This document shows positions 1-55,115 of a stretch of DNA of 64,000 nucleotides, one piece after another; within the stretch, counting starts at the first letter, position 1; each line of letters starts with the position of its first letter. The DNA lies in the NCBI GenBank assembly GCA_045130875.1, contig JBGUQI010000011.1, forward strand, positions 9,828 to 73,827. The letters run 5' to 3'. Below the pieces are notes generated by a model. The model did no database searches and was not told the DNA's origin. It saw nothing but the letters and a program-made list of their open reading frames with translations. The stretch comes from Bacilli bacterium (lineage in GTDB: Bacteria > Bacillota_I > Bacilli_A > RFN20 > CAG-826). The translations under genes were made by a program, and so were the position numbers.

Positions 1-344
1 AAATTCGCAAAAGTTCTCTTCTTATAGATGTAATAAGAAAAGATGGAAGCTAAGAATGTTCCAGTTAAAGAAGTAAAGAAATATACAGCGAATGAATTAC
101 CGATCATCCGCCAAAAACCACTACGGGAAATATCGTTTTTAAATAGACCTATGTTCGAGGAGATATCAAAGATGAATTTGCCATCCACTCTTTTTTGGAA
201 AGCCATGAAGAAAGATTGAAAGTTGACACCAAAATAGAAAATCCCTATTTGGATAATAGGGATGAGTAAAAGAACAATGTAGAAGAGTAAATCACCCTTC
301 CTCACAAACATTCTATTTTTGCGATTGATCTTTCTTCTTTCCAT
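1..344 (-). CDS. Carbohydrate ABC transporter permease (CUT1, LplB/MalF-like); N-terminal fragment, gene runs off the left edge
   Basis: Absent from the ORF track because it is truncated. My translation of the minus strand from the ATG at 342-344 gives MERRKINRKNRMFVRKGDLLFYIVLLLIPIIQIGIFYFGVNFQSFFMAFQKRVDGKF..., open to base 1. It aligns with the N-terminus of the in-window permease 46214..47137 (GDILFYCLVLIIPLAQIAIFYFGVNFQSILMSFQ). It lies a few nt downstream of the SBP stop. Confidence 0.8.
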   Translation of the reverse strand, partial: MERRKINRKNRMFVRKGDLLFYIVLLLIPIIQIGIFYFGVNFQSFFMAFQKRVDGKFIFDISSNIGLFKNDISRSGFWRMIGNSFAVYFFTSLTGTFLASIFSYYIYKKRTFAN

Positions 345-350
345 TAAATG

Positions 351-1982
351 CTATCTTTGTAAGGAACTCCAGAGACCATGGAAGTAATCGTATTGGCCAT
401 CGAAGTATGCGTTGACTGAAGGATTCTTCACTGTGGTAAAGTACATCCAAGGATGACGATAGACAGTACCGCCGATCTTGGTATTCCATGTCCAGTTAAA
501 GGCATTGAAATATAAATTGTTATCGAGTTCTAATTGATTAGAAGAATAGGGATAGAAAACATTCGCGGTCTTCTTCAAATTGATTAGTGATTTTGCATAG
601 GTTGTTAAGTTTGCTTGATCCTCTTCGCTAATCTCATAATTGAGAGGTCTAGTAATAGAGGTATCTCTTGTAAACTTAGAAAGCATCTTATCACTGTGTA
701 AGAATTTCATAAATTCTAATGCTAAATCTTTATTCTTAGAGGAGTTAGAAACAACACCAAAAGATTGAGATAAGGATAAGTAGGTATGTTTATAATTGCA
801 GGCTTCCGCTTTTGCTTCATCAGCAAATGGGATAGGCATAATCGCATAGTTATGTCTTTCACCATAGTTTTCTTCATATGTTTTGAAAGCGTTCTTGGCT
901 TCGTTTTCCCACCAGGAGCCTTCCACTAACATACCGATTGGTTTACCCAATTGGTGGCCATTGATAAATGATGTTTGTGCACCAGTATGGCTGGCTTCAA
1001 GTTTTCTATTGTAGTTCTCAGGATTACTGACTAGGACATCATTAAAGAATTTTAATGTTTTATAACGGCCAACCTGTCTTTGAAGTTCATAGCCATTATC
1101 ATCAGTAATTGTGGTTACCGCTTTATATGTAATGGTGCCATCATCAGCGATAGTATCCACTAAATCACTCGCGGTGCCATTAAGTGTTAAGGTGAGTTTC
1201 ATATTCTCCACACCTTCATAATCGGCAAAGACATTAAATAAATAGTTCGCGGTATATTCAATACCTCTTTCAGAGGCGATAAATGGAATGATGTTTTTAT
1301 CTAGCATCTTTTTGATGAGTTTATCAAATTCAGCGTATGTCGCTGGTAAGCCATCATCCATCGTTCCCGCTTGATTATCTGTACCTAAAGTTAAATCACC
1401 ATTCTTATTGACGAATTGACCGGCTTTGGAAAGATATAATTTTTGTTCATTCCATAAATCGACATCATAGACCATGCCATAGAATGAATCATAGAATGGA
1501 ATACCATACACTTTGTTATTAACGGTAAGATAATCCGCTAATGTGGGATCAATCTTTTCCATGATGGTTCTATCATCACCATAAGCGGTTAGTTTCTCAT
1601 TGACGATATTGGTGATTTCTAAGAATTTACCTTCTCTAGATAATTCACGATAGGCAATACCTTCGGTAAAGTAAATATCATGGTTTAAAGATGAGGTCTC
1701 AATATAGTTACCATCATATTGGGTGCTACCTTTAATAGAGACTTTGACACCCTTTCTACCTTCTTGGAAGTTTGTGGAATCTTTATAGAGCTCCTCAAAT
1801 TCTCTCGCGGCATTTTCTAACCAAGCAGTACCGATACCTTTATCTAAGGTTGCGACTGCAATGTTAGCCTTCGTGGGGTCTTCATCATCATCGCCTTTTT
1901 TCTTTCTACCCGCACATGCGGAGGCAAAAAGTGATAATCCTAATGAACTAACGCACAATAGTAATAAGGTTCTGTTTTTCAT
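351..1982 (-). CDS. Extracellular solute-binding lipoprotein of a sugar ABC importer (large LplA/YtcQ-like family 1 type)
   Basis: Signal peptide with lipobox LFASAC. About 540 aa. Clear paralog of 47139..48746 (IPFYDSFYG vs VPFYDCFYG; EGSWWENEA vs EGTWWENEA). Sits between a giant surface-protein gene and a permease gene. Confidence 0.85.
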   Translation of the reverse strand: MKNRTLLLLCVSSLGLSLFASACAGRKKKGDDDEDPTKANIAVATLDKGIGTAWLENAAREFEELYKDSTNFQEGRKGVKVSIKGSTQYDGNYIETSSLNHDIYFTEGIAYRELSREGKFLEITNIVNEKLTAYGDDRTIMEKIDPTLADYLTVNNKVYGIPFYDSFYGMVYDVDLWNEQKLYLSKAGQFVNKNGDLTLGTDNQAGTMDDGLPATYAEFDKLIKKMLDKNIIPFIASERGIEYTANYLFNVFADYEGVENMKLTLTLNGTASDLVDTIADDGTITYKAVTTITDDNGYELQRQVGRYKTLKFFNDVLVSNPENYNRKLEASHTGAQTSFINGHQLGKPIGMLVEGSWWENEAKNAFKTYEENYGERHNYAIMPIPFADEAKAEACNYKHTYLSLSQSFGVVSNSSKNKDLALEFMKFLHSDKMLSKFTRDTSITRPLNYEISEEDQANLTTYAKSLINLKKTANVFYPYSSNQLELDNNLYFNAFNWTWNTKIGGTVYRHPWMYFTTVKNPSVNAYFDGQYDYFHGLWSSLQR

Positions 1983-1984
1983 AT

Positions 1985-4900
1985 CTATCTAGCCTTCTTT
2001 CTTTTGATAATTAACATTGTTAATAATAGTGCTGACGCTAATAATGCAAAGATGGAAATCATGGAACCAGTAGTCACAACACTACCACCGCAACCTTTCT
2101 TTTGACTTCCATAAACATGGGAGGCTTTATATTGCTCAACAATATTATTGATTTGTTCAATACTAGTAGCTGCTTTAACAGCATCAATCGCTGCGGCAGT
2201 ATCTTTATTTAATTGCTCTTTTTGAGCTTCAGATAATTTAGATAAATCAATACTTCCATAATAGTTTTGGATTTCTAAAATGGCAGCCTGTCTAGCGGCT
2301 TCTAATTCTTCTTGTTCATATTCGCCTTTAGTCTTCAATCTATCGATTTTTGCCATCAAATCCTCGACAATTGCATTGATTTCATCATATGTAGTCGCAT
2401 TATTAATCGCTTCAATAGCTTCATCTTTATAATCTCTCATATCAGCGATTTCTTCTTCGCGATATTGATTTAATTGATCCTCTTTATAGCTATTCACCAG
2501 TTCAATCGCGGCATCTTGGAATTTTCTAAATGTGGTTCTATAGGCATCAATCTGCGCTAACGCTTGATTCAAAGTGGTTTCCACTTCTTCTTTTGTGGTG
2601 CAGTTATTAATCGCTGTTTTACCATTATTGATAATTTGAGTAATCGCTTCAGCATCTGCAGTGTCATATAAAGATAAGTCGACATATGTCTCCAATCTCT
2701 TACATGCATCCGCTTTAATTTCTTCTAAGGAGAATACTTGTTCCCAAGTTCCATTTGTGTAGAGGAATGTACATTTACCGAATGTCACCGCAACCTTGGT
2801 TTTGGTTTGATTATTGAAATAAGCAAATGTTCCTTCGATGACGACTTGGTCACCATCAACGACATCCGCGAAAGGAGAAACCATAATAACATAATCAAAG
2901 GTGCCAACCTTTTGAATAGAAGCAGAATATGGTTTGCTAACTTCTTGTGCATTATCGCCTCTAATTAATTTCATTTGAGAAGGGAAATATGAATATAATT
3001 CAACAGGTTCTTCAGAATCATATGGAATATCATTCGTATCCATACGAACATTGATATAGTTCTTTGAACTATTTTGATTATTCAATCTAAATGTTCCATA
3101 GTAAGAACCTTCGTTAACTTCAATATCGTTATCGTAATTACTAACTGTCGTTGTTCCTTCGTAATTGTTGTTTTCACGATTATCATCATTAGAAGAGATG
3201 GCAACACGTGGATTGACACAAATACCAAGGGAATCTACAACTTTACTAAATACATAAGAACCATTCACTTTAACGAATAACCAAGTAATATCAAAGTCGA
3301 TTAAATCGATGGCACCCACTTCAACATTGAGTTCAGTATTTAATGGGAAGGTGCCTTCATTGCCGCCAAGGAACTTATCATAATCTTCGGATAATAGAAC
3401 AACATAGCAACCATTTGTGCTAGTGCCTAAACCAAATTTATATCCATATAATGGATGTCCTCTTAAGACCACCATTAAGTTACCGCCACCCACGGCGGGT
3501 GTGGCATCACTATAATACTTAAACTGGAAGATGACATTACCTTTATCGTTACCATTAGAAGGAACGAAGGTATTTCTTCTTTCGTTTTCCAAAGCACTTG
3601 TGCTTAAATCATTCTTTCTCTCTTCTAAATCACCATGATAGGTTTGGCTTTCGAGGTTTAATTGATTTAAAGACACTCTGTCATAAACCGCTAAATAATC
3701 TTCATAGTTACCACTGTGAGATTCCACAGATTCAATCATTACTTCTTTTTTCACTTTCACAGCATCAATGTTAGCTTTTGCAGTTCTAAGAGCTTGGTTA
3801 ATCTCGCCTTTTGTGGTTGCGCTATTGATCGCGGCAATACAAGTATTGATATAACCAGTTATTACTGTTTGCTCAGCTGGGAAGTAATTATCTAAATCAA
3901 CATAATTACTAATTTCTTCAATTGCTGCTTCCTTTAATTCTGTCAAATATCTAGCGGCAGCTTCTGGATCCATCTCAATAGCATCAAGTGCATCGACGAT
4001 TTCATTATATTTCGCATATACGCCTTTAACAGAGGTAGGCGCTAATAAGTTTTCTTCAACATTTTCTAATATCGCGGCCACTGCTTGCGCATTTTCATCC
4101 GCATAATTATTCACATCATAACTAGATAAAATCTTATCCACTAAATATGATCTGAAATTGACCACTTCATAATCATTCGCACCATTACCAAATTTATGGA
4201 AAGCCGCTTCACTTAAAGTGAAACCCATGGATTTGTTTTCTTCTAAGGTGACATTGCCTTTATAAGCAAAAGTTCCATCAAAGACCACTAATGAGTCTAA
4301 GGAGATAAGACTGTTCCAGCCTTGCATATCACCATTGGCGCAGACAAAGAATAAATAACCGTGGTTGTCTCTTCTCTTAAGAGCGGGTTTTTCAACCGCG
4401 GCTACTGGTTGTCCATCAATATATACATTCTCAGTGCTGGTTGGATAATATCCATAAGTATCACCAGTAACTGGAGCATCTGATTGTTCTAGGCCCATTA
4501 AGTTAAACAAGAAAGCCCACTGTTGGTCAGGTTCTGGAGGCATAGATGGAGTTCCACCATCAACCACCACTTGTGGTATAGCGGTAAAATAAGAACGTTT
4601 GCTACTTTGAGAAACAATAAAGGAAGTCTCTTTAATATTGAGAACATATTTGCCGTCAAATCCTGAACTACCATCTCTATCACTGGATATGAAATCCCCT
4701 TTGATGGTGTAGATATCACCATGTTGAGGTTTATATTCACCCATCATCCAGTCTTCTAAAGCGTAAACTGTATCGGAATATTTAGTGATCATTTCCCAAG
4801 CACTGTTTGTGGCGAGGTTATGAGTAACACCATTACGCGTAATGGTTACACAATCTTCACTTAGTGGACGATATCTAAGAGATGAGTCTGGTTCATATGG

Positions 4901-5101
4901 AGCAGCATTGGGCAGCATATTGAATTTCTTAACACTGATGTTGCCATCGGTATTTGTTGAACAATAACTACCTTGTACGGGGATAACGTCATCCGCCTGC
5001 GCGATAGAAAAAACATTGGAATGGATGGAAGTAAAAAATCCAGCCACAAGGCCTAGCGTCGCGGGAATAACGAATAATTTGGAGATAATTTTTTTCTTCA
5101 T
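1985..5101 (-). CDS. Giant membrane-anchored surface protein, family A (3 beta modules, 1 jelly-roll-like module, 2 helical repeat stalks, KKGCGGS + TM anchor); putative glycan binder, function unknown
   Basis: 1038-aa ORF with AAGGA about 8 nt upstream of the ATG. N-terminal signal peptide (KKKIISKLFVIPATLGLVAGFF...AQA). C-terminus is KKGCGGSVVTTGSMISIFALLASALLLTMLIIKRKKAR. Same module order as 48758..52387. Its stop is 3 nt before the SBP start. Confidence 0.75.
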   Translation of the reverse strand: MKKKIISKLFVIPATLGLVAGFFTSIHSNVFSIAQADDVIPVQGSYCSTNTDGNISVKKFNMLPNAAPYEPDSSLRYRPLSEDCVTITRNGVTHNLATNSAWEMITKYSDTVYALEDWMMGEYKPQHGDIYTIKGDFISSDRDGSSGFDGKYVLNIKETSFIVSQSSKRSYFTAIPQVVVDGGTPSMPPEPDQQWAFLFNLMGLEQSDAPVTGDTYGYYPTSTENVYIDGQPVAAVEKPALKRRDNHGYLFFVCANGDMQGWNSLISLDSLVVFDGTFAYKGNVTLEENKSMGFTLSEAAFHKFGNGANDYEVVNFRSYLVDKILSSYDVNNYADENAQAVAAILENVEENLLAPTSVKGVYAKYNEIVDALDAIEMDPEAAARYLTELKEAAIEEISNYVDLDNYFPAEQTVITGYINTCIAAINSATTKGEINQALRTAKANIDAVKVKKEVMIESVESHSGNYEDYLAVYDRVSLNQLNLESQTYHGDLEERKNDLSTSALENERRNTFVPSNGNDKGNVIFQFKYYSDATPAVGGGNLMVVLRGHPLYGYKFGLGTSTNGCYVVLLSEDYDKFLGGNEGTFPLNTELNVEVGAIDLIDFDITWLFVKVNGSYVFSKVVDSLGICVNPRVAISSNDDNRENNNYEGTTTVSNYDNDIEVNEGSYYGTFRLNNQNSSKNYINVRMDTNDIPYDSEEPVELYSYFPSQMKLIRGDNAQEVSKPYSASIQKVGTFDYVIMVSPFADVVDGDQVVIEGTFAYFNNQTKTKVAVTFGKCTFLYTNGTWEQVFSLEEIKADACKRLETYVDLSLYDTADAEAITQIINNGKTAINNCTTKEEVETTLNQALAQIDAYRTTFRKFQDAAIELVNSYKEDQLNQYREEEIADMRDYKDEAIEAINNATTYDEINAIVEDLMAKIDRLKTKGEYEQEELEAARQAAILEIQNYYGSIDLSKLSEAQKEQLNKDTAAAIDAVKAATSIEQINNIVEQYKASHVYGSQKKGCGGSVVTTGSMISIFALLASALLLTMLIIKRKKAR

Positions 5102-15902: not shown

Positions 15903-15903
15903 C

Positions 15904-17382: not shown

Positions 17383-17387
17383 TCCTC

Positions 17388-19445: not shown

Positions 19446-19471
19446 AAATCTATTTTAGTAATAATAACATG

Positions 19472-39750: not shown

Positions 39751-39754
39751 GAAA

Positions 39755-40339
39755 TTAGTATACGCTAATAGTAAATCCTTTACTAACTTCTTGCTCTTGA
39801 TAAGAGGCGGTGACTACACAACTTGTTGTGCCAGCTTTTAATGCAGTTACCATAGTTCCTTCAATAGAAACAATCGTGTTATCACTAAAAGCATAAGATA
39901 ATGTTGGATAATCAATTATTTCATTACCCATCTTGACGGTAAGGGGTAATGCATATTCATCCCCGACTTCTAAAGTGAAAGATTCTTTAGTTAAAACGAT
40001 TTGCAAACTATCGTGAGCTTGATAAGGCGTTACCTCCACAAAGACAACATAGGAATCCTTACCACCACGAACTGTAATAGAAGTTTCACCCGCTTTAATG
40101 CCGGTAATTAAACCGGTATCGCTAACAGAGGCAATCGTGTCATCCGCACTGGAATAGAAAACGATAGTTCCTTTCTTGATGATTTCAGTTTCAATCTGAT
40201 AGGTTTCTTCTTCCATAATAGAAACTTCGTTGATGCTGACATTAATATATTGTTCCGTTGGAGCATCGCTCTTCTTACTATTAGATTTACAACCTAAGAG
40301 AAAGGGGATTAATAATAAAGATAATAATAACTTCTTCAT
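39755..40339 (-). CDS. Small surface lipoprotein with two bacterial Ig-like (Big_2-type) domains
   Basis: Lipobox FLLGC-KSNS. Two ~80-aa segments end in ASVSDTGLITGIKAGETSITV and VSIEGTMVTALKAGTTSCVVTA, the Big_2 pattern. Confidence 0.7.
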   Translation of the reverse strand: MKKLLLSLLLIPFLLGCKSNSKKSDAPTEQYINVSINEVSIMEEETYQIETEIIKKGTIVFYSSADDTIASVSDTGLITGIKAGETSITVRGGKDSYVVFVEVTPYQAHDSLQIVLTKESFTLEVGDEYALPLTVKMGNEIIDYPTLSYAFSDNTIVSIEGTMVTALKAGTTSCVVTASYQEQEVSKGFTISVY

Positions 40340-40348
40340 AACTTCCTC

Positions 40349-42283: not shown

Positions 42284-42294
42284 AACCGTACCTC

Positions 42295-45312: not shown

Positions 45313-46214
45313 TATCCTTTAATACCTCCCGCTGCGACATTGAGTTTTAAATATCTATTTAATAAAGCAAAGACAATCACTATTGGCATAGTTAAACCAA
45401 TAAGACCTGCTAATTTGATAGGAATATAGTTAATCGCTCTTTCACCAGTGATAGAGAAAGTGAATAAACCTTCCGCTAAAGTGGGATATGATGGCAAATA
45501 CACTCTTGGAATTTGATAATCATTCCAGAAGGTAATAAATGATAACAAGAATAATGTTGTCATCGTCGGTATCGCTTGAGGGAAGATGACTGTAGTCATA
45601 ATTCTAAAGTTAGAAGCACCATCCACTTTCGCAGCTTCTGAATAGGTCATTGGAATCATCTGGAACTGCGCATAGAAGATTAAGAAATTAATCGATAAGA
45701 AATTCATTCTTAAAACAAATAGACCAAAGAATGTATCAAATAAGTGTAATGTCTTTAACATTCTTAATTCAGATGGCATAGCACCAACGATAGGTAATGA
45801 CATTGTGATAATCACAAAGGCATAAATAACTTTGGAGAATTTGAATTTAAATCTCGCTGCGCAATAAGCCACCAAACAAGGCGTGAGAGTGAAGAAGAAG
45901 GCACATCCTAAAGTGTATAAGATAGAATGACCAATCATCTCTAAGAAGTCATATTTTACACCTGTTGTATAGGCAGTTAATTTAAATTTAGTAAAGGCGG
46001 TAACAAAATTATCAAATGTTAACTTCGTAGGGAAATCTTTGCCAAAGACATAGAAAGCATTATATGCCGCTTTATCGTTAAATGCGGAATATGTCGCCCA
46101 GATAACAGGGATTAATAAAGAGATGAAATAGACAATCAAAACCACGAAGATGATAACTGTCATCGGTGACATCTTTTCTTTAATGTGTTGGGATTTTAAA
46201 GGCTTTTTATCCAT
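45312..46214 (-). CDS. Carbohydrate ABC transporter permease (LplC/MalG-like)
   Basis: EAA loop EAAKVDGASNFRIMTTVIFPQAIP. Polytopic. 1-nt overlap with the upstream permease gene. Confidence 0.9.
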   Translation of the reverse strand: MDKKPLKSQHIKEKMSPMTVIIFVVLIVYFISLLIPVIWATYSAFNDKAAYNAFYVFGKDFPTKLTFDNFVTAFTKFKLTAYTTGVKYDFLEMIGHSILYTLGCAFFFTLTPCLVAYCAARFKFKFSKVIYAFVIITMSLPIVGAMPSELRMLKTLHLFDTFFGLFVLRMNFLSINFLIFYAQFQMIPMTYSEAAKVDGASNFRIMTTVIFPQAIPTMTTLFLLSFITFWNDYQIPRVYLPSYPTLAEGLFTFSITGERAINYIPIKLAGLIGLTMPIVIVFALLNRYLKLNVAAGGIKG

Positions 46215-47137
46215 TATCTATCCCCCCACTTCGATAAAATCTTCCTCACGGTAAAGGTGAGAGGCACCGCCACACAAGTGGATACCAAACCTAAGAAGGA
46301 AGCATAACAATATTTAGACATTCCACTTCCAGAAGAAGAAACTAAATAATAGAGATAATAACCGATGGTTTTATCAGTACCGATAATCTGTTCTGCATAG
46401 AAGGAATATAAATTGTTTTGATTGGTAAATATCGTCGCTACGCCAGCGATAACAAATGTCGTAATTGTAGGAACGATATAAGGTACCACCAAAGAGATAA
46501 ATTCTCTAAATGGGGTAACACCATCAATCTTACCGGCCTCGAGCATTTCTTGAGGGATTTGATCCATTGCCCCAGAATACACCAAGACTTGGCTACCAAA
46601 GGAAATCCATACAGTATAAGCGGTAATAATCCAGAAATAAGTTGATGAATCAGTTAATAATCCTTTGCCATTTAAATTTAAAAATGCCGGCATAGCCGAA
46701 TTCATAAAGAATTTAAATATTAAGACTAATAACAATCCAGGAATGATGGATGGTAAGAATAATATAAATTTAAAAAATTTATAAGCCGCTCTCCTTTTAT
46801 AAATATAGTAAGAGAAGAATAACGCTAAAATTGTGCCCGCAAGTTGAGTGCAGAGCCAAACGATAAAGGAGTCTCTGACCATAATCCAGAATGACTCTGT
46901 GCGAATCTCATCCCAGAACTGTAAGGCGTTTGTGGTTAAATCCCAATAGAAGAAATCTTCTTTTGTATTATAGGATTGAAAAGACATCAAAATACTCTGG
47001 AAGTTAACTCCAAAGTAGAAGATGGCAATTTGCGCTAAGGGAATTATTAAGACCAGACAATAGAAAAGAATATCGCCTTTATTCTTCGCGAAACTATTCG
47101 ATGAATTGATGTTGCGGATATTCTTTTTTTCAGTCAT
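46214..47137 (-). CDS. Carbohydrate ABC transporter permease (LplB/MalF-like)
   Basis: EAA loop EAGKIDGVTPFREFISLVVPYI. Paralog of the fragment at 1..344. Confidence 0.9.
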   Translation of the reverse strand: MTEKKNIRNINSSNSFAKNKGDILFYCLVLIIPLAQIAIFYFGVNFQSILMSFQSYNTKEDFFYWDLTTNALQFWDEIRTESFWIMVRDSFIVWLCTQLAGTILALFFSYYIYKRRAAYKFFKFILFLPSIIPGLLLVLIFKFFMNSAMPAFLNLNGKGLLTDSSTYFWIITAYTVWISFGSQVLVYSGAMDQIPQEMLEAGKIDGVTPFREFISLVVPYIVPTITTFVIAGVATIFTNQNNLYSFYAEQIIGTDKTIGYYLYYLVSSSGSGMSKYCYASFLGLVSTCVAVPLTFTVRKILSKWGDR

Positions 47138-47138
47138 A

Positions 47139-48746
47139 TTATTCGCCGACCATTCTCTCCCAGGCAGATTGGCCTAAAGTAGACATGTGATCTTCAAAAT
47201 ACATTCTTGCGGTCACGTTGCTCTTATCGATGAATTTAAGAATTGGGTTGTTTGTATATTTAGAAGTATTCCAAACCCATTCTTGAACCGCGAATGTCGC
47301 TTCATTATTCACAAAGAAATCTAAACCGGAATATGGATAGACAACTTTGACATGTTCACTTTGTTTAATAGCGATTAAATCTCTCGCATAAGATGTAATC
47401 TTATCCAAGTCTTCATCATTGAAGTTATATTTAAGACCTCTAGTCATATTGGTTTCAATAGTGAAAGCTCTTAAGGATTCATCAGTGTGTAAATAGGAGA
47501 AGAATTCTTTCGCTAGTTTCATATTCTTAGAATTGGCACTGATAAAGCCAAATGAATCATTGAGGTTCATTAAGGTAGCATCACCAAGATGAGCATTATC
47601 CACTTTGGGAATAGGCATAAATCCATAATTGAATTCATCAACACCCATGCTTCTAGCATATTCAAATGCTTCAGCGGCTTCGTTTTCCCACCAGGTGCCT
47701 TCAAACATCATAGCGATTGGTTTTGTGGAACCACCTTGATATTTATTATTAATAAAGGCGTCTTGTACATCGTAGTTTGTGGAATATGGACGATAATTAC
47801 TCGCTTGATCGCAAAGAACATCTCTCGCAAATTTTAAAGCATTATAAATGCCTAATTGGCTCTTTAATAAATAACCATTATTGTTGGTGATAGTCTTTTG
47901 TTCGACGATTGGATTATCAGATTCATCAAAACCAGTCACGATATTGTTAGCGACACCATTGAAGTTATAGTTCAAATTGGTTTGTTCATAGCCTTCAAAA
48001 TCGCTCCACCAGGAAGTGAGGGCTCTAACGGTATATTCTGATGCGTTGCCATTAGAATATGTGAATGGAATGACTTGCATTCTAGTCATTTGATTCATCA
48101 TATTTTTGAATTGCTCATAGGTTTTTGGTAAACCATCATCCCAGTCACCCGCAATACCATTAGGGCCAGTACCAAATTGTGATTCTTGATCGGTGAATTG
48201 GCCATCATTAGTCATATAGAATTTCTTTTGTTTAAATAAATCTTTATCATAGATAAGACCATAGAAACAATCATAGAATGGGACAGCGTAGTATTTGCCA
48301 TCTCTTTCCATAAATGATAGTAAGTTGTTATCGATTTTCTCAGCGATTGTCTTACCACCGTCTTCAGGATTTGGGGTGGTTAAGATATCTGTGATATCAG
48401 CAAATTTGTTATTGTTGGTTAAATAGTAATAGTCAACATTCTCGGTGAAATAAATATCTTTATTTAAATCAGAGTATTTTAAACTCTCACCTGCAGAAGA
48501 TCTATCTGAAGTGATATGGATTTGAACACCTGTTCTTCCTTCTACAAAATCAGTACGATCTTTGTTTTTCTCTTCGAATAACTTCGCAGCGTTTCTTAAC
48601 CATTGGTCACCAACACCACCTTCAAAGGTGGAGATTTGGAGTTGGGCTTTGGTTTCATCAACCTTTTCCCCACCACCCTTTTTACAACCGGTGATTGCCA
48701 CTAATGAGATTAGAGCCACCGCGCTAATTAATTTGACATTTTTCAT
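47139..48746 (-). CDS. Extracellular solute-binding lipoprotein of a sugar ABC importer (large LplA/YtcQ-like type)
   Basis: Lipobox AITGC-KKGG. 535 aa. Paralog of 351..1982. Confidence 0.85.
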   Translation of the reverse strand: MKNVKLISAVALISLVAITGCKKGGGEKVDETKAQLQISTFEGGVGDQWLRNAAKLFEEKNKDRTDFVEGRTGVQIHITSDRSSAGESLKYSDLNKDIYFTENVDYYYLTNNNKFADITDILTTPNPEDGGKTIAEKIDNNLLSFMERDGKYYAVPFYDCFYGLIYDKDLFKQKKFYMTNDGQFTDQESQFGTGPNGIAGDWDDGLPKTYEQFKNMMNQMTRMQVIPFTYSNGNASEYTVRALTSWWSDFEGYEQTNLNYNFNGVANNIVTGFDESDNPIVEQKTITNNNGYLLKSQLGIYNALKFARDVLCDQASNYRPYSTNYDVQDAFINNKYQGGSTKPIAMMFEGTWWENEAAEAFEYARSMGVDEFNYGFMPIPKVDNAHLGDATLMNLNDSFGFISANSKNMKLAKEFFSYLHTDESLRAFTIETNMTRGLKYNFNDEDLDKITSYARDLIAIKQSEHVKVVYPYSGLDFFVNNEATFAVQEWVWNTSKYTNNPILKFIDKSNVTARMYFEDHMSTLGQSAWERMVGE

Positions 48747-48757: not shown

Positions 48758-51700
48758 TTATTTAAACATTAATAAATGTTTCTTCTTAAGTAATAAAGCC
48801 ATACCACATAAGGCAATGACACTGATGATTAAACTAGAATCAATCAAAGAACCACCACAGCCTTTCTTGGCGCCTTTTTCAATATATTTCTCACCATCAA
48901 AGGTAGAACCATCATTGGTCTTCACTTCTTTAATGGCTTGCTTAAATGTATCCACAATTCTTTGAACTTCTTCTTGAGAAGTAGCGTTATCAACATCACT
49001 TCTGGCTTTCATCGCTAATTGTTGAATGAGAGCAGTATTCTCATCGCTATAACGATTGAGTTCTAATAAACCAACATAGGCTTCAATCTCCGCTTTAGCG
49101 GCTCTTTTAAAGCTCGCTAATTCTTCCGCATCATATTGAGCAGCAGTCTTTAGACCATCGATTTGAGTCTTAGCATTAGCGACAATAACATCAACTGATA
49201 AAGTATCATTACAATTATCAATTGAAGCAAAGGCTTGAGTGAGAATTCTATTTAATTCATTTACTTCATTTTGTCTAAATAGTTCTGGTGATTTATAAGC
49301 AGTTAGTTCCGCTTTTGCGGCTTTTTTGTAATCATCGAGTATTGTGCTGATAGTATCAATCTCCGCTAAAGCTTCTTCTAAAATGCTATAAACTTGTTCC
49401 ACAGATGTGGCATTATCAATTCTTGAAGAATAAGTCTCTATGATACCAGCAATAAGGGCTTGGTTAGTTTCAGTATAATCATCGAGATGAGCATAAGATG
49501 ATAGTGTCTCTTTAGCTTCCATCTTAGCCACTTCTAACGATGGAGCTGATTGTGTCCAATTATCTGAACCAGCATGATAAGTAAAATCGGTATCGAATAA
49601 ACGAACAATGTTTTTGAATGATGAACCAGATTTTTCATAAGAGAATAATCCACCGATATGAACCACATCACCATCGGATACTGGATAAGCAATCAAAACG
49701 CTATATTTATTCCCGCTAGATTTAACTAAGCGAGCGTTACTACGATTTTGATTAATAGGATTACCATTAATGGTAACTGCACCATTTTGGATTGGATATA
49801 GCTCAATACCAGAATCTAAACTATTATCTCTTAATGTTCCTTTTAAAGTTTCAGAATTGGAACTATTATCGAGAATTAAACGTCCTAATAAAGTAGAATT
49901 AGCTAATTTAGTGGTTCCTTCTTCAACCGCGGATAATGTCGCTGTTTCATTACTATTAGCAGCGGTATAACTATCCATAATAATTACAGATGGTTTAGAT
50001 TCCGCAGTTATTGGATTAACAATCTTCCTAGCCACGAATTCACCATCGATTTTCATATAAATGAAAGTACGATTATAATCTTTTAGATCAACAGCACCAC
50101 ATTCAATGACATATTCAGTATTGGCCACAAAGTTAGCGGCATATGTACCAATGGTTTCAATAATGGTTTCATTATCTTTCATAACACCCATTCTGACACC
50201 CGGAACATTGTTAATGTTCGCGCCAATAGAGAAGATATAGTTATTAGAAGCTGTGCCTCTTAATCTAATAAATAATTGAGCATCATATTCACGTGATTTT
50301 GGATTGGTGCTGGAATATTTAAATTTGAAAACCATATTCCCGTCTTCATTATCACTAGCCGCGGCGATGTGACTATGGAAAGCATCACGATTACCATCGG
50401 TGCTATAACTATTAATTTCTTGTTCTGAATCTTTTGGATAGATGTGAACATCACCGATAGCGGATAAATCAGTAATTGTGGCAACATCATATTTAGCGAG
50501 ATATTGTTCATATCCTTCTTCTAACGCCATAATCTTTTGTTCAATGACGTCTTGTTTAGTTTCCACACCAGCGATTAAAGCTTTGGTGTTTTCCACTATC
50601 TGTCTAACTTGTTCCACACTTGTCGCAGCGTTGATTTGTTCAATCGCAGAATTAACATAACCCGCAACAACTTCTAGTTGCGCTGCTTCATATAAATCTT
50701 CATCGACATAAGCGTTCAATTCATTAATCGCGGCTTCTTTGGCTTGTCTTAATCTTTCCGCAGCCTTTTCCTCATTAAGAGGAACTTGATCTAATTGAGA
50801 CATATAGGAATAGTATTCATCCCATAAGTCTTTCATAGATGTCGCGTTATTAAACGCCGTGGAAGCTTGGCTTAAAAGACCTTGGATAATTATGACTTTG
50901 TCATCATCATAATCATCTAAAACATAGCGGTCAGTTAGCTTATCAAGTAAGTGAGAATAGATATTAGAAATATAAATGAAGTTACCACTTACAAATTCCG
51001 TTGCAAATGGATGGAAAGACATTGTGTAAACTGTGTCGTTTTCATAGAAATGGAATTCATTTTCTAAAGTAACAATGTCACCCTCACTAAAAGTGAAACT
51101 ATAGTCATCAGAGAAGTTTAAATAATAATTGGTTGCGCCATGTTTAACTAATGGATTACTCTTAAATCCACGAGATGTATAAAGTGGTTCACCATTTCTT
51201 AAAACATTATATTTAGATACAGGGGCACCTCTTGTTGCCCAATCTGCTCTCACAGGAATATCATTCTCTGGTCCAAAAAGGTAAATACCAGCTTGTTGAT
51301 TTCCTCTTTCAAAAGTCAATGTATCAGTAGGGGCTTTTTGTTCAGGAATTGTGGTTCCCACAAAGATGTTGGTTTTGCCATAATATAAGCCAACACGAGG
51401 ATAGAAATCTCCACTATTCACTGATTTAATAATTTGATACAAATATTGACCATCATATTTCACGAAAATATAGTTTTTATTTTCATCTTTGACTCGTATT
51501 GCGCCAAATTCAATAATATGCCTAGCACCTGGTTGCAAATTACATGGTAAGTCTCCAGATTGATTGAGAATTGTGTTACCATTCTTTTCTCTTAAAACAG
51601 CAACACCACCAGCATCTTCATTCCAACTGTTACACATATAGAAAACAAAATAATGTCCGCTATCCCAAGTTCGATTGCCAATCCTGACATTAAAAGCTTC

Positions 51701-52387
51701 TTGTTGCATATCGCTAAAAGATTCAAAAGCAAATTCGAAAGAAAAACTATTTGTAGTGTTATCTTCGCTTAGTGCAAAAGTATTCCAAGCACCTGGCGAA
51801 TTTCTAAAGTCTTCAGTATTTATTACTTCATTAGAAAAATCATCAATACCCGCTTGAGTTAAAGATATCTTGTCATAAGTTTCTAACTCAGGCATGACAA
51901 ATTCATCAACCCATTTCGTGCCATCCCAAACACAAGAAAACGGGTTTATATAAACAGAATAAGTTACACCATTAACAGTGGCACCCCAATTCCCTTTGAT
52001 GGTAATGGTATCACCTTCATTTCTGGTAGAATATCCAGCTTCTCCAACCGCAATAAAATAACTCATGGACCCATGTTTTACTAAAAATCTAGTAGAACGA
52101 GTGGTTATATCTATCCCATTAAAAACCAAAGCATGTGCTTCAGTGCTAAACAAACGTTTTTCCCAATCAGCCGTATATGGAAAAGCATTTGTTTTATCGC
52201 TTAAAACGAAAACCCCTGATTCTGAGCTGGTACTAGACATATTGGTTTCAACAGTGAAGTTCATTTCCCCTAAATCAGTGACATTATCTGCTTTAACGGA
52301 AGTATATTCTTTCGGTGAAAAAGAAATCGCGGCACACGAAAGAATGCATGCCATACCAATTGATAGAATCAAACTGTTTTTCTTCAT
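48758..52387 (-). CDS. Giant membrane-anchored surface protein, family A (3 beta modules, 2 jelly-roll-like modules, 2 helical repeat stalks, KKGCGGS + TM anchor); putative glycan binder
   Basis: 1209-aa ORF with AGGGGA SD and a signal peptide. By my residue count: beta modules ~60-162, 372-470, 855-946; jelly-roll-like ~205-345, 675-805; helical repeats ~478-645, 949-1156; KKGCGGS at 1174-1180, then LIDSSLIISVIALCGMALLLKKKHLLMFK. Confidence 0.75.
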   Translation of the reverse strand: MKKNSLILSIGMACILSCAAISFSPKEYTSVKADNVTDLGEMNFTVETNMSSTSSESGVFVLSDKTNAFPYTADWEKRLFSTEAHALVFNGIDITTRSTRFLVKHGSMSYFIAVGEAGYSTRNEGDTITIKGNWGATVNGVTYSVYINPFSCVWDGTKWVDEFVMPELETYDKISLTQAGIDDFSNEVINTEDFRNSPGAWNTFALSEDNTTNSFSFEFAFESFSDMQQEAFNVRIGNRTWDSGHYFVFYMCNSWNEDAGGVAVLREKNGNTILNQSGDLPCNLQPGARHIIEFGAIRVKDENKNYIFVKYDGQYLYQIIKSVNSGDFYPRVGLYYGKTNIFVGTTIPEQKAPTDTLTFERGNQQAGIYLFGPENDIPVRADWATRGAPVSKYNVLRNGEPLYTSRGFKSNPLVKHGATNYYLNFSDDYSFTFSEGDIVTLENEFHFYENDTVYTMSFHPFATEFVSGNFIYISNIYSHLLDKLTDRYVLDDYDDDKVIIIQGLLSQASTAFNNATSMKDLWDEYYSYMSQLDQVPLNEEKAAERLRQAKEAAINELNAYVDEDLYEAAQLEVVAGYVNSAIEQINAATSVEQVRQIVENTKALIAGVETKQDVIEQKIMALEEGYEQYLAKYDVATITDLSAIGDVHIYPKDSEQEINSYSTDGNRDAFHSHIAAASDNEDGNMVFKFKYSSTNPKSREYDAQLFIRLRGTASNNYIFSIGANINNVPGVRMGVMKDNETIIETIGTYAANFVANTEYVIECGAVDLKDYNRTFIYMKIDGEFVARKIVNPITAESKPSVIIMDSYTAANSNETATLSAVEEGTTKLANSTLLGRLILDNSSNSETLKGTLRDNSLDSGIELYPIQNGAVTINGNPINQNRSNARLVKSSGNKYSVLIAYPVSDGDVVHIGGLFSYEKSGSSFKNIVRLFDTDFTYHAGSDNWTQSAPSLEVAKMEAKETLSSYAHLDDYTETNQALIAGIIETYSSRIDNATSVEQVYSILEEALAEIDTISTILDDYKKAAKAELTAYKSPELFRQNEVNELNRILTQAFASIDNCNDTLSVDVIVANAKTQIDGLKTAAQYDAEELASFKRAAKAEIEAYVGLLELNRYSDENTALIQQLAMKARSDVDNATSQEEVQRIVDTFKQAIKEVKTNDGSTFDGEKYIEKGAKKGCGGSLIDSSLIISVIALCGMALLLKKKHLLMFK

Positions 52388-52554: not shown

Positions 52555-54948
52555 TTATTTGCTGTAACGTCTTTTTCTTAAAACGAGTAAGACACCTAAT
52601 AATGAAGCCGCAATTAATGCAGTGGAAGCAACAACGATAACTACTACATTGTTGTTGTTCTTGAGATTCAAAATTGAACCCGCACCATTGGGTGTGAATG
52701 TACCAGCAGCGGCATCAAATGTTTCACCATTAGCACGTGCCCAAGCTTCTAATCTAGCTTTAGCAGAACCATAGCCAGCATAGTTAGCAAATAATGCTTT
52801 TTCATCAGCGGTTAATGCAGCATAAGCAGTCTTTGCACCAGCATAATAATCAGCACATTGACCATTACCAACATAGCTATACATCTTTAAGCTATTTCCG
52901 ACAAATGATTCAAGATTTGCATTGTATTCTTGATAATCAGCGTGAACATTGCTCATAAAGAATGTGCCATCGAAGTTCCATAATACAAAGGCAAAGCCCA
53001 TGACTTCACTATAAGCGAGATTGACAGTAACACTATGTAAACAACCATCATTGATTAATTCAACTTCGATATCGTGATACATATTGCCATCTTTGCAATA
53101 TTTAACCAAAGCTTGAACTGTGAAGTTATTAATCACAGAGCCCGAGGCTGGAGCAGGAACATAGTAACCATCTTCAGTTAATGAGTGGTTACGATCTTGA
53201 GCAGTAATTGTACCTTCATTCTCATAAATATAATCAAAGGTTAATTGAGTCATAGCGTAAGCTTTAGTTTCGGTCTTGTAACCATTCTGTGGGAAGTAAA
53301 CACGATATTCACCGTGTGTAGAGGAATCACTACTTGTGAAGTAGATACCAGTGTGATTGTTGGCATCTTTCTTATAAACTAATGTGTCAATTTCTTCACC
53401 AGTATTTTCATCCCAAACAACGCCTTGATCAAATTGCTTGACAGAGGAAGCGTGGTTGCTATCTGGTCTTGTTCTACCAATATTGAGTAATAAGTTGCCT
53501 TCTTCTAATTGGTCTGCTGTGGACGTTTGCAATTTATCAAGTGCATACTCATTCCAAGTTTCACCATCAAAAACCCAAGTGTTTTCCAAAACAGAGAATT
53601 TATAGATTTTTAATTCTGCGGTGACAAATTTGAATGCACCACGAATTGTTAATGTGTCACCAGCCACTGGTGTTGTAAATAAATCAGTGCCGAGACCAAA
53701 ATAGAATTTTTTAGCATCAACTTTCTTAAAATAATTGGCTTTGTTTTTAGCAATTTGAGCACCATTATAAAGAATGTTGTCATCTTCGTATGGCAAGCAG
53801 TATTCACCAAATGTCGCTATTTCTGGAATTGGATCATATGTTAATGAGAAGTATGGATTGCTAGGATTGCTATCATAAGCTAGCGCTTCATTTCCCCAAA
53901 ATTGAGAAAGAGAATTGCTGAATGAGCAATCTGCGCCTGGATAATTAATGCTGACTCTTGTAGTCATATCGGAAGCATCAATAGTCCATTCACACGCTTT
54001 AAGGAACCAACCATCTTTTTTAAGGAATGCTAAATAATTAGAAGAGTTTTTGATTTTGATTAGGCCAAATTCAATTAAATAAGTTGTTTCAGCAACAATG
54101 GCAGAATCAATTTCACCAGACGATTGTACGACAGCATCATCGTTGCAATCTTCAATAAAGAAAGCGCCACCAGGTTGTGGTCCCCATGTATTGTTGTATC
54201 TTAATCTAAGATTGTGTCCAGTTGCCCAAGCACCATTACATCCAACTCTTATGGTCACTTGATCGTCCATCGCATCTTCAGCTTTAAATTTGAACTGGAA
54301 AGCCCAGCTATTAGTTGTACTAGTGGGGGCAAAACCATTCTTTCTTAAACCGTTTTGGTTATAGCCGTCTTCTGTACTAATGGCTTCTGTTGCATAATCA
54401 CGCATACCACAATCACGCATTGAGACTAAATCATAGTCTTCTAAATCATAATCGTAATACGGAACCCATTCTGTACCAGTCCATTGTCTTGAAAATGTTG
54501 GAGAGATTGTGAATGTATGAACTTCACCTTCGTATTCTGTCTGCCAGGTTCCTTTAAGAGTGATGTAAGAACCAGCATCAGCTTCTGTGAATGTTTTTCC
54601 AACAGGAGCAGCGCTGAATCTAAAACAAATATCTCTCTGGCTAACTTTAGTGGCAAGCAAAGCACCTGCATCAACGCCGTTAATGAAGCAGCCACCAGAA
54701 CCGCCAACTGGAGTATAAGAGACAGTCCAGTCACCAGCAGAGGGTGCTGAATTGCCGTTTGGATCATAGGCACTAATTGTTTCACCAGTGCTAGAAGTAA
54801 GATAGGTGAGGTTGTAATTGCCATGATCAGTTGTGGCTTGGGCTTCTCTATCGATTGAATCAGTTAGCCCTTTAACGGCTAAAGCGGATCCACTCGCCAA
54901 AAGAAAACCACAAACCAAAATAGGAATCAATTTTCCAATTTTTTTCAT
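52555..54948 (-). CDS. Large membrane-anchored surface protein, mosaic: family-A N-terminal half + C-terminal jelly-roll/helix/TM cassette of 8451..11609
   Basis: I place the start at ATG 54948 (MKKIGKLIPILVCGFLLASGSALA; GGAGGAG 5 nt upstream), not at the track start 54996. The N-terminal half aligns with residues ~60-470 of 48758..52387. The C-terminus aligns with 8451..11609. TM plus basic tail VVIVVASTALIAASLLGVLLVLRKRRYSK. Confidence 0.75.
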   Translation of the reverse strand: MKKIGKLIPILVCGFLLASGSALAVKGLTDSIDREAQATTDHGNYNLTYLTSSTGETISAYDPNGNSAPSAGDWTVSYTPVGGSGGCFINGVDAGALLATKVSQRDICFRFSAAPVGKTFTEADAGSYITLKGTWQTEYEGEVHTFTISPTFSRQWTGTEWVPYYDYDLEDYDLVSMRDCGMRDYATEAISTEDGYNQNGLRKNGFAPTSTTNSWAFQFKFKAEDAMDDQVTIRVGCNGAWATGHNLRLRYNNTWGPQPGGAFFIEDCNDDAVVQSSGEIDSAIVAETTYLIEFGLIKIKNSSNYLAFLKKDGWFLKACEWTIDASDMTTRVSINYPGADCSFSNSLSQFWGNEALAYDSNPSNPYFSLTYDPIPEIATFGEYCLPYEDDNILYNGAQIAKNKANYFKKVDAKKFYFGLGTDLFTTPVAGDTLTIRGAFKFVTAELKIYKFSVLENTWVFDGETWNEYALDKLQTSTADQLEEGNLLLNIGRTRPDSNHASSVKQFDQGVVWDENTGEEIDTLVYKKDANNHTGIYFTSSDSSTHGEYRVYFPQNGYKTETKAYAMTQLTFDYIYENEGTITAQDRNHSLTEDGYYVPAPASGSVINNFTVQALVKYCKDGNMYHDIEVELINDGCLHSVTVNLAYSEVMGFAFVLWNFDGTFFMSNVHADYQEYNANLESFVGNSLKMYSYVGNGQCADYYAGAKTAYAALTADEKALFANYAGYGSAKARLEAWARANGETFDAAAGTFTPNGAGSILNLKNNNNVVVIVVASTALIAASLLGVLLVLRKRRYSK
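52682..52735 (-). repeat. 54-nt block identical to 8578..8631
   Basis: See 8578..8631. The offset is exactly 44104 nt, on the same strand. Confidence 0.95.
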
Positions 54949-55115
54949 ATAGTCTCCTCCGAGTACTTTATATTTCAATTGTATGCCTACACGCATACTT
55001 AAAATAGAATAATATTTATCTCATTTTTGTATTATCTTGATATTTCGGTTTCACTAATATTACATATTTATATAATTTTAAAAACTGATTTTGATTTGTA
55101 TTTTCTTAACAAAAG

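Follow-up and report, generated by a model that had tools for sequence, protein, structure and literature searches.

Surface capture of glycans is well documented in the Bacteroidota and their Sus-like systems, in which non-catalytic surface proteins (SusD and the SusE/F-type SGBPs) are co-encoded with a surface endo-enzyme and a transporter, do not resemble classical CBMs in sequence and diverge quickly between species. In a review of glycoside transporters from 2026, "surface glycan-binding protein" is a term reserved for SusC/D systems (PMC13543919), and for Gram-positive PULs (gpPULs) we follow the definition of Sheridan et al. 2016 as given in PMC13543919 and PMC5320581. Two further points of reference are the GH163 complex N-glycan locus of Bacteroides thetaiotaomicron (BT1035) and the GH185 enzyme Sp_0475, with DUF4838 as the catalytic domain in GH185 as well as in the surface GH163 endo-GlcNAcase (PMC10570127). 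Two orders of the Bacilli, RFN20 and ML615J-28, reportedly lack sortases (PMC10868615).

Here we describe a 64-kb stretch of DNA from an uncultured rumen bacterium (the whole stretch being called the window) in which six very large surface proteins, hereafter giants, are encoded in or beside sugar-import operons. A first-pass annotation of this DNA had likened its logic to Sus-like systems or gpPULs, and it is the second comparison that stands. The window does share with Sus-like systems the traits listed above; however, there is neither an outer membrane nor SusC nor the SusD fold, the giants carry a TM helix instead of an N-terminal lipid, import is of the ABC type, no TonB-dependent receptor or SusD family occurs among the 43 window ORFs of 150 aa or more, and no homology of window proteins to Sus proteins was detected. 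Like gpPULs, on the other hand, these loci combine a transport system, a regulator and enzymes, namely an ABC importer with lipoprotein SBP, an AraC regulator and GHs (DUF4838/GH163-185 type, GH2, GH78); they differ from gpPULs in that their conserved first gene encodes a very large non-catalytic surface protein devoid of Pfam or NCBIfam domains, in anchoring through a C-terminal TM helix rather than by LPXTG and sortase, and in possessing their own truncated MalK-type ATPase together with a 6-TM protein outside the known families. We considered a separate kind of system and rejected it: loci of the A and C types carry a DUF4838 surface lipoprotein and have beta-mannosidase, GH38, GH78 and NagA nearby, so that they fit the existing gpPUL definition. 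What the window contains is probably a lineage-specific Gram-positive-type PUL with new non-catalytic surface binders and a mannose/GlcNAc glycan as its substrate.

Six giants and their operons

All six giant ORFs lie on the minus strand, at 1985..5101 (giant A, 1038 aa), 8451..11609 (1052 aa), 11787..14060 (757 aa), 22141..24852 (903 aa), 48758..52387 (giant C, 1209 aa) and 52555..54996 (813 aa in its longest form, or 797 aa from an internal ATG at 54948 at which the signal peptide, MKKIGKL..., begins); they are referred to below by their lower coordinate. A hydropathy scan bears out the topology first proposed, with a signal-like hydrophobic stretch at the N-terminus and, at the C-terminus, a hydrophobic helix that runs into 3-5 K/R in 6/6 cases. 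Anchoring by this helix rather than by LPXTG is likewise upheld, since an LPXTG-like motif occurs in 0/6 window giants and 0/147 relatives; the NCBIfam LPXTG_anchor model aligns only to the TM-plus-basic part, where the window giants score below its cutoff. Neither the intact proteins nor their isolated modules, searched at E<=10, match a catalytic family in Pfam or NCBIfam, in agreement with the lack of catalytic motifs noted earlier.

Giant A is the first cistron of cassette A, the rest of which (3..1982, minus strand) runs off the window edge: a lipoprotein SBP (351-1982, 38% identical to that of cassette C) is followed by a permease of which the window covers only the start (3-344); this fragment is similar to the N-terminal part of the permease at 46214-47137 in cassette C, itself a BPD_transp_1 match. 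Cassette B opens with 22141 and closes with 11787, and its core (14063..22138, minus strand) encodes a short MalK-type ATPase (21407-22138), two small TM proteins (20926-21426, 20340-20933), a 6-TM protein (19511-20353), a 685-aa lipoprotein (17388-19445), an SBP (15904-17382) and two permeases (14961-15902, 14063-14977). Giant C is the first cistron of cassette C, whose core (38208..48746, minus strand) comprises an SBP (47139-48746), the permease already mentioned and a second one (45312-46214), a 1005-aa secreted Ig-like protein (42295-45312), a DUF4838 (GH163/185-type) lipoprotein (40349-42283), a Big_2 lipoprotein (39755-40339), a short MalK-type ATPase (39010-39750) and a 6-TM protein (38208-39029). 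Four of the six giants hence stand at the ends of operons with an SBP and two permeases, as the annotation had it, and the junctions are indeed tight or overlapping, at -20 to +12 nt with a sole exception of 65 nt (19446-19510).

The SBPs carry a lipobox and match SBP_bac_1 and SBP_bac_8 as well as, weakly, the carbohydrate SBP equivalogs TIGR03850 and NgcE, and the permease pairs match BPD_transp_1. Judged by these sequence matches, cassettes B and C are CUT1 (TC 3.A.1.1) importers made up of an SBP, two permeases and a MalK-type ATPase. The two ATPases (243-246 aa; best matches GlcV, UgpC and MalK) align over the nucleotide-binding domain only and are without the C-terminal regulatory domain; that cassettes B and C each encode their own ATPase is missing from the first-pass annotation. 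No duplication between cassettes is visible at the DNA level, from which it follows that the cassettes are old paralogues.

AraC-family regulator genes lie at 5193-6074 (plus strand, divergent from cassette A), at 26153-26920 (minus strand, upstream of cassette B) and at 55116-56105 (plus strand, divergent from 52555), in positions that are conserved in related loci. The enzymes comprise the DUF4838 lipoprotein within cassette C, a cytoplasmic GH2 beta-mannosidase beside cassette A (6055-8388, plus strand, convergent with 8451), which matches BtMan2A (2vjx) at E 1e-96, a GH78 encoded between cassettes B and C, and NagA, whose gene lies near the cassettes; in cassette B itself, Pfam/NCBIfam-type family searches recognise no extracellular enzyme. 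A DUF6259 protein is encoded at 56114-58207 (plus strand), and both of the plus-strand pairs of AraC and enzyme genes that had been described are therefore present. The surface DUF4838 enzyme, with mannosidase and GlcNAc-catabolic genes nearby, recalls BT1035 and Sp_0475 and suggests a GlcNAc/mannose glycan as substrate, although, unlike those two, the window protein is assigned to neither GH163 nor GH185; a search for its sequence relatives in the PDB found none.

The two giants outside these operon ends, 8451 and 52555, had been considered monocistronic. This stands for 52555, which is closed off by its own terminator-like hairpin (52533-52512), with promoter-like sites at 52521-52424 ahead of 48758. 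A strong terminator (8432-8405) lies 3' of 8451, but none was found between 11787 and 8451, and 8451 may consequently be co-transcribed with cassette B; the adjacency of these two genes is kept in a related locus (L006).

Module composition and predicted folds

Domain HMMs, BLAST and hhalign bring to light pieces that are shared pairwise, and the small module set supposedly common to all six giants dissolves into a chain of sharing with no common kit. At one end of the chain, 1985 reads signal peptide, B, helical H, lectin-like L, B, helical H, KKGCGGS, TM helix and basic tail, and is 28% identical over about 900 aa to 48758, which is composed of B1 (34-165), L1 (166-351), B2 (352-474), H1 (475-633), L2 (634-825), B3 (826-949) and H2 (950-1155) ahead of the same KKGCGGS, TM helix and basic tail. 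The 52555 protein has a B-L-B array (res 55-483), a C-terminal domain Z (res 478-770) and the TM anchor. Among the six giants, B and L modules are confined by domain HMMs and BLAST to 1985, 48758 and 52555, and helical modules to 1985 and 48758, the other four having none. Domain Z connects 52555 to 8451 (39% identity), in which one copy of a 120-aa module X (res 58-172), a long middle stretch (550 aa) without an assigned module, Z (res 730-1010) and a TM anchor follow one another. Three copies of X (res 59-179, 213-335 and 373-488), unrelated to B or L by hhalign, recur in 22141, and the Flg_new repeats and TM anchor of that protein are shared with 11787, whose sequence is mostly unique up to its Flg_new-like C-terminus and anchor. 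By sequence comparison, then, the six giants draw on about three module families, unrelated to one another, which the shared pieces tie into a chain.

The B, L, X and Z modules have no match in Pfam or NCBIfam even at E<=10, and a profile search of PDB sequences retrieved nothing; the earlier remark that the modules were not recognisable as known CBM families withstands this HMM check. It does not extend to the helical modules being unrecognisable, for these give weak matches about the gathering score, both of them marginal: DUF1542 in 1985 (27.5 bits against a gathering score of 24.3) and GA in 48758 (24.6 against 24).

The AlphaFold model of the 1209-aa 48758 protein (pLDDT 87.7) reproduces the B-L-B-H-L-B-H layout, with consecutive helical triplets forming three-helix bundles at res 475-633 and 950-1155. 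Foldseek aligns it to galectins (TM about 0.55-0.6 over about 160 columns), to the botulinum toxin Hc domain, to the PilC lectin module (target TM 0.5-0.6 for these three taken together) and also to the alginate lyase Aly36B, the matches being weak (E about 1e-3 to 1e-4); the 8451 model, whose fold matches are CBM4/6/22/29-like, is unreliable (pLDDT 52.7). Jelly-roll sandwiches are a generic fold. The structural check that had been proposed for the giants has thus returned beta jelly rolls of lectin or CBM type, but faintly, and the 48758 model weakly indicates a lectin-type beta jelly roll as the fold class of the L module. A group of acidic and basic residues in L1 of 48758 hardly varies (the FEFAFE strand with E222, then H245, H290, E293, K300 and D312).

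Conservation in related loci

That the layout is more than coincidence is seen from its return in about 15 independent metagenomic loci from related "Bacilli bacterium" MAGs, with giants 34-66% identical and the conserved order AraC / 52555-like / giant / SBP / permease / permease / Ig-like / DUF4838 / Big_2 / ATPase. The cassette C core order is kept in L001, L003, L009-L011 and L015-L019, a 52555-like gene precedes the giant C orthologue in 11 of the loci fetched (L003, L004, L009-L011, L014-L017, L019), and the AraC gene keeps the position of 55116-56105 in L003, L004, L010, L011, L014, L017 and L019. Synteny of cassette B is preserved in L006, which carries the 11787 orthologue at the same position, and in L007, where the 22141 orthologue (P0028) stands between a preceding AraC gene and the ATPase gene that follows. 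An A-type locus (L013) continues with two permeases, an Ig-like protein and DUF4838, and carries GH38.

More distant B-repeat giants are likewise found in CUT1 operons, in different gene arrangements: a 2278-aa protein follows permease, DUF4838, GH2 and GH38 genes in a locus from Clostridia (L012), and a 1796-aa one closes the operon in L020. The postulated linkage of giants to CUT1 importers across genomes is accordingly borne out by orthologous loci, by the paralogous cassettes A and C and by these two rearranged loci, most of the supporting loci being orthologues of one clade, which leaves about four or five independent associations. Divergence is faster in the giants than in the permeases of the same loci, and within the giants the distal B1 is the most variable part (34% identity) and the membrane-proximal H2 the most conserved (51%); fast divergence and a variable B1 are as expected of an exposed, ligand-facing part. 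Relatives reach up to 13 tandem B repeats and 2460 aa, there are many giant paralogues per genome, and the family is small and lineage-restricted, with 226 clusters at 50% identity among 1.84 billion representatives.

Discussion

We favor, with a probability of roughly 55%, the reading that the window holds three Gram-positive-type PULs of an uncultured rumen/gut "Bacilli bacterium" lineage, the giants being their non-catalytic surface glycan-binding or tethering parts. An AraC-type regulator would turn the locus on, and the giants would be secreted by Sec and kept in the membrane by their C-terminal TM helix. In those of the A and C types, rigid stalks of three-helix bundles (DUF1542/GA-like) would hold the L jelly rolls and B modules tens of nanometres out, where these could catch soluble or particle-bound glycan. 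Surface lipoprotein enzymes would trim the catch, the DUF4838 protein as a GH163/GH185-type hexosaminidase and perhaps also the 1005-aa Ig-like protein and the 685-aa lipoprotein; the lipoprotein SBP would pass oligosaccharides to the CUT1 permease pair driven by the operon's short MalK-type ATPase, and cytoplasmic beta-mannosidase, NagA and other enzymes would complete the breakdown. We infer that the giants bind glycan, cooperate with enzymes and importer and hand their catch to the transporter; for cassettes A and C, the predicted specificities of the neighboring enzymes make mannose/GlcNAc-containing glycans of the N-glycan type the likely substrates.

Were the giants instead adhesins to host mucosa, plant particles, fungi, protozoa or bacteria, no substrate would be passed to the transporter and their location in importer operons would reflect nothing but the co-regulation of attachment and feeding. 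GA and DUF1542 modules bind host proteins in some pathogens, and helical repeats resembling them are typical of Gram-positive adhesins; the H1/H2 modules of 1985 and 48758, at or just over the gathering scores, and the modelled bundle runs of 48758, which would suit a stalk, do recall the DUF1542/GA/FIVAR-type giant adhesins of staphylococci and streptococci. The long tandem B arrays of the relatives are adhesin-like in design, rapid divergence with a variable tip would suit such a role too, and Flg_new repeats like those of 22141 and 11787 are common in surface proteins. The described adhesins, however, are LPXTG-anchored proteins of pathogens outside sugar-importer operons, whereas in the window giants the helices alternate with novel beta modules. 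Furthermore, the first-cistron position, 2-11 nt from the SBP or ATPase gene, is strictly conserved across species and paralogous cassettes, CUT1 linkage recurs in unrelated gene orders, and adhesion to glycan surfaces and glycan capture are not mutually exclusive, all of which makes a purely adhesive role unlikely in our estimation.

Rather less likely still is that the giants are unrecognised carbohydrate-active enzymes making the first extracellular cut, with new GH or lyase families hidden in the L modules, in the 550-aa middle of 8451 or in most of 11787. The ConA-like jelly roll is also the fold of GH16, GH7 and PL7-type enzymes, Aly36B is among the matches, L1 has its nearly invariant charged residues, and cassette B is in want of a recognised extracellular enzyme; yet L2 of the same protein has FKFKY where L1 has its acidic strand motif, catalytic families are unmatched even at E<=10, the closest fold matches are non-catalytic lectins, and a surface DUF4838 enzyme is already provided in the loci. 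The least credible of the alternatives, in our view, makes the giants a structural coat or scaffold of a wall-poor cell that has no glycan specificity of its own, a fibrillar layer organising lipoprotein enzymes and SBPs in the manner of a scaffoldin or shielding the membrane. Such a role would agree with the conservation of the H2 stalk (51% against 34% at the tip), which suits protein-protein contact near the membrane, with the many paralogues per genome and with the reported lack of sortases in RFN20 and ML615J-28 (PMC10868615), but a general coat protein is not expected inside substrate-specific, AraC-controlled operons, nor as a different paralogue for each importer, and cohesin- or dockerin-like modules were not detected in the giants.

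Within the preferred glycan-binding reading, we entertain only tentatively the bolder proposal that the B/L/H and X/Z giants are the first members of a new class of surface glycan-binding proteins in Gram-positive bacteria, membrane-anchored functional counterparts of SusD/E/F borne on helical stalks and working physically with the CUT1 importer and lipoprotein glycosidases in sortase-less Bacilli. If that were so, B, L, X and Z would be new carbohydrate-binding module families, up to four in number and invisible to current CAZyme annotation. Glycan binding by the giants would in any case supply the missing surface-capture part of ABC-based loci in widespread uncultured rumen/gut Bacilli, and would counter the suggestion that sortase-less lineages show few surface proteins (PMC10868615); as the family is small and lineage-restricted, the impact would be felt mainly in rumen/gut microbiome annotation and CBM discovery.

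The TM anchoring of the giants may be a simple consequence of a sortase-less lineage (PMC10868615). No candidate sorting protease was recognised in the window, and the KKGCGGS-TM-basic tails of 1985 and 48758 match no NCBIfam sorting model; one relative has a tail that hits families of MYXO-CTERM-anchored proteins below threshold, and the motif is missing from some orthologues. One possibility is that the conserved KKGCGGS before the TM helix represents a new C-terminal sorting or lipidation signal.

Organization of the importer cassettes

The window (GC about 35%) holds almost all of its coding capacity on the minus strand, and Pfam and NCBIfam annotation of 43 ORFs of at least 150 aa lays out three sugar-importer cassettes, A, B and C, described here in the order of minus-strand transcription. 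ORF calling recovered all six large surface-protein ORFs of the first-pass annotation, which we call the giants and name by their first coordinate; the last of them, entered there as 52555..54948, is present as well, save that its longest frame reaches 54996, position 54948 being the ATG that opens a typical signal peptide. A hydropathy scan likewise found an N-terminal hydrophobic segment, together with a C-terminal hydrophobic helix followed by 3-5 Lys/Arg, in every one of the six.

Cassette C, preceded by promoter-like sites (52521-52424), encodes the giant 48758-52387, a lipoprotein substrate-binding protein (SBP), two BPD_transp_1 permeases, a 1005-aa secreted Ig-like protein, a DUF4838 lipoprotein, a Big_2 lipoprotein, a 246-aa ATPase and a 6-TM protein; the giant 52555-54996 is flanked on one side by a terminator-like hairpin (52533-52512) and on the other by a divergent AraC gene. 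Cassette B, with an AraC gene upstream (26153-26920), comprises the giant 22141-24852, a 243-aa ATPase, two small TM proteins, a 6-TM protein, a 685-aa lipoprotein, an SBP, two permeases and the giant 11787-14060, after which the giant 8451-11609 follows across a 177-nt gap that contains a promoter-like site and no terminator; a strong terminator (8432-8405) closes this last gene. Cassette A consists of the giant 1985-5101, an SBP and the first 114 codons of an ORF cut by the window end, a fragment resembling the N-terminus of the cassette C permease 46214-47137. Neighboring genes within a cassette are spaced at -20 to +12 nt, apart from a single 65-nt gap.

The ATPases of cassettes B and C best match GlcV, UgpC and MalK, the match being confined to the nucleotide-binding domain; taken with the accompanying SBP and permease sets, these matches make cassettes B and C complete importers of the CUT1 type whose ATPases are truncated. 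The only nucleotide-level match between cassettes is a 48-nt stretch (88%) shared by the two SBP genes, so that the cassettes are not recent copies of one another and recent duplication can be rejected.

The two ATPases (243-246 aa; 21407-22138 and 39010-39750) are short MalK/UgpC/GlcV-type proteins devoid of the usual C-terminal regulatory domain. The 6-TM proteins (19511-20353 and 38208-39029) match no family and are 30% identical to each other; ATPase and 6-TM genes are adjacent in cassette C and separated by two small TM proteins in cassette B, and the pairing is kept in related loci.

Conservation of the gene neighborhoods

Annotation of 19 fetched loci was based on comparison with the window proteins. 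On every contig of sufficient length, cassette C retains the order divergent AraC, 52555-like gene, giant, SBP, permease, permease, Ig-like protein, DUF4838, Big_2 and ATPase, with identities of 34-66% for the giants and 66-82% for the permeases. The order of cassette B, including orthologues of 11787 and 8451, is kept in locus L006, and its start (AraC, 22141 orthologue, ATPase) in L007; an A-type locus, L013, presents GH38 followed by giant, SBP, two permeases, Ig-like protein and DUF4838. Two distant loci are differently arranged: L012, from a Clostridia MAG, runs permease, DUF4838, GH2, GH38 and then a 2278-aa protein with repeats of the B module described below, and L020 runs SBP, two permeases, three ORFs (355, 46 and 1451 aa, none with a Pfam match) and then a 1796-aa TM-anchored B-repeat protein. 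Linkage to sugar importers, on which the first-pass annotation had staked its proposal, thus recurs in other genomes, although the supporting loci count for only some four or five independent associations rather than fifteen. In L001 (1-9770), from one related MAG, a bacterial microcompartment locus encoding BMC shell proteins, EutN, aldehyde dehydrogenase, PTAC and acetate kinase sits just upstream of the orthologue of cassette C.

One NCBI protein, encoded on a 205-kb contig, equals 8451 at 100% identity. The named relatives come from "Bacilli bacterium" MAGs, and a scan of genome collections returned a single matching locus, in a sheep rumen Bacilli MAG. Word-indexed searches found 22 homologues for 48758, 4 for 8451 and 3 for 22141, and a B-L-B profile (two B modules flanking an L module), run with HMMER over all 1.84 billion cluster representatives, collected 226 clusters at E<=1e-3, many of them 1000-2460 aa long and with up to 13 matched stretches. 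Among 36 distant B-repeat relatives compared with Pfam, none carries a glycoside hydrolase or CBM partner domain, Big_2 (four of the 36) being the sole partner seen.

Modules and predicted folds of the giants

Modules were grouped by all-against-all BLASTP and by domain HMMs cut out of the family alignment. The beta modules B (about 125 aa) and L (about 185 aa) occur in 1985, 48758 and 52555, and helical H blocks in 1985 and 48758 only; a C-terminal domain, Z, is common to 52555 and 8451; module X (about 120 aa) is found once in 8451 and in three tandem copies in 22141; and Flg_new repeats connect 22141 with 11787. This pairwise sharing draws a mosaic chain, 1985 - 48758 - 52555 - 8451 - 22141 - 11787, in which X shows no detectable kinship with B or L: hhalign gave a probability below 2%, and the idea that X is a diverged copy of either was rejected. 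The mosaic character announced in the first-pass annotation stands in part, and its single common kit gives way to three groups. Neither as whole proteins nor as isolated modules did B, L, X and Z find a Pfam or NCBIfam match (E<=10), and the family profile had no match among PDB sequences; the H blocks do reach Pfam gathering scores (DUF1542, 27.5 vs 24.3; GA, 24.6 vs 24).

Domain Z (window 8580-9420 in 8451 and 52690-53565 in 52555) ends, just ahead of the anchor, in a strongly conserved helical segment, LKMYSY..G.C..YY.DAK.AY.ALS..EK..F......Y.SAKARL.AWA.ANGE, common to 8451, 52555 and their orthologues and matching no family.

An AlphaFold2 model of residues 34-1170 of the 1209-aa giant 48758, built from 24 aligned sequences, has a mean pLDDT of 87.7 and runs from B-L-B through a helical block and L-B to a longer helical block made up of successive three-helix units, with the anchor after it. 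Its Foldseek matches in the PDB are weak (E ~1e-3) yet mutually consistent: galectin-10, -4 and -9 (with a target TM of 0.5-0.6 across some 160 columns), the receptor-binding Hc domain of botulinum toxin, the lectin module of Streptococcus sanguinis PilC pilin and an alginate lyase. Since the 160 or so matched columns fit the length of L, we take this module to be a ConA/galectin-like jelly roll, as modeled. The 8451 model, based on five sequences and with a pLDDT of 52.7, matched CBM4, CBM6, CBM22, CBM29 and ephrin-receptor ligand-binding domains, matches that are for this reason hints at most.

Putative function of the giants

Of the readings considered, the one with most support makes the giants putative non-catalytic surface binding or tethering components of the importer loci. 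Two features, a tight and conserved operon linkage and the lectin-type fold, speak for a part in acquiring glycans, in which the TM helix would keep the giants in the membrane and, in the A/C-type proteins, helical stalks would push the lectin-like domains outward, where glycan might be bound and handed off. The giants evolve fast, the distal B1 module being the most variable (34% mean pairwise identity vs 51% for the membrane-proximal stalk), and this too fits an exposed, ligand-facing part. The proposed architecture is upheld once the modules are corrected, and glycan capture, which withstands the refutation tests put forward with it, is plausible.

It is rather unlikely that the giants are adhesins merely co-regulated with feeding. 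Somewhat less likely still is that they are unrecognized enzymes, for which it speaks that GH16- and PL7-type catalysts share the ConA-like fold and that L1 carries a conserved set of acidic and basic residues. A scaffold or surface coat seems the least probable of these. Returning to surface binding or tethering, the type of system, a Gram-positive polysaccharide utilization locus (gpPUL) with an ABC importer, is already known; what appears new are conserved, very large, TM-anchored first-cistron proteins with four module types outside any family, of which our literature search found no description. A 2026 transporter review applies "surface glycan-binding protein" only to SusC/D systems (PMC13543919).

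C-terminal anchors

A TM helix with a basic tail closes 70 of 147 relatives, and LPXTG occurs in none of the 147. RFN20 and ML615J-28 are reported to be sortase-less orders (PMC10868615); were the organism a member of either, TM anchors would be the expected substitute for LPXTG.

In 1985..5101 and 48758..52387 the motif KKGCGGS directly precedes the TM helix and basic tail (window 1985-2120 and 48758-48920), the tail often ending in KKRKED. The motif occurs in about 27 of the 147 relatives (P0031, P0049, P0062, P0086, P0113 and P0144 among them) and is missing from some orthologues. Such tails gave no convincing match to curated NCBIfam sorting domains, one relative showing a weak MYXO-CTERM-like match, and KKGCGGS may serve as a signal for sorting, cleavage or acylation. 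That the 6-TM proteins 19511 and 38208 might be CPBP/CAAX-type proteases acting on the cysteine motif was unsupported, there being no family match and no EExxxR-type motif on reading their sequences. A subgroup of B-repeat proteins of 1500-2300 aa (P0077, P0082, P0085, P0101, P0103, P0110, P0133, P0138, P0166) has no TM anchor and shares a conserved beta-rich C-terminus, ...TFDSNVTEVVIYRGG...LATGEGVIILPSKLG.

Accessory genes and type of locus

DUF4838 (PF16126) is the catalytic domain of GH163, whose founder BT1035 is a surface endo-beta-N-acetylglucosaminidase active on complex N-glycans, and also that of GH185, a 6-sulfo-GlcNAcase (PMC10570127). The window protein carries a lipobox and is, on that account, probably surface-exposed. 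The GH2 adjoining cassette A is a beta-mannosidase by its match to BtMan2A (E 1e-96), the related loci L012 and L013 contain GH38 alpha-mannosidases, and the stretch between cassettes B and C encodes NagA, a ROK-like protein, a GH78 rhamnosidase and esterases. A mannose/GlcNAc (N-glycan-type) glycan is a reasonable guess for the substrate of cassettes A and C. The published definition asks for a degrading enzyme, a transporter and a regulator (PMC13543919); it admits cassettes A and C as gpPULs, and cassette B, having no recognized enzyme of its own, only if the nearby GH78 is counted.

The Ig-like protein (42295-45312; weak match, present in every A/C-type cassette) and the 685-aa lipoprotein (17388-19445; conserved in cassette B) have no recognizable catalytic domain and are candidate unrecognized enzymes. 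Compared with PDB sequences, the accessory proteins 42295, 17388, 40349 and 56114 gave no useful match. The last of these (56114-58207), paired with the AraC gene beside 52555, is a 697-aa DUF6259 protein devoid of a signal peptide, for which "glycosidase" is a label from the first-pass annotation only; we found no mention of DUF6259 in the papers searched. The longest ORF of the GFO/IDH/MocA oxidoreductase (24867-26216) overlaps the upstream AraC gene (26153-26920) by 64 nt, and translation probably begins at the internal Met of MENKVLTV instead. The AraC gene at 5193-6074 begins with GTG and overlaps the GH2 gene (6055-8388) by 20 nt.
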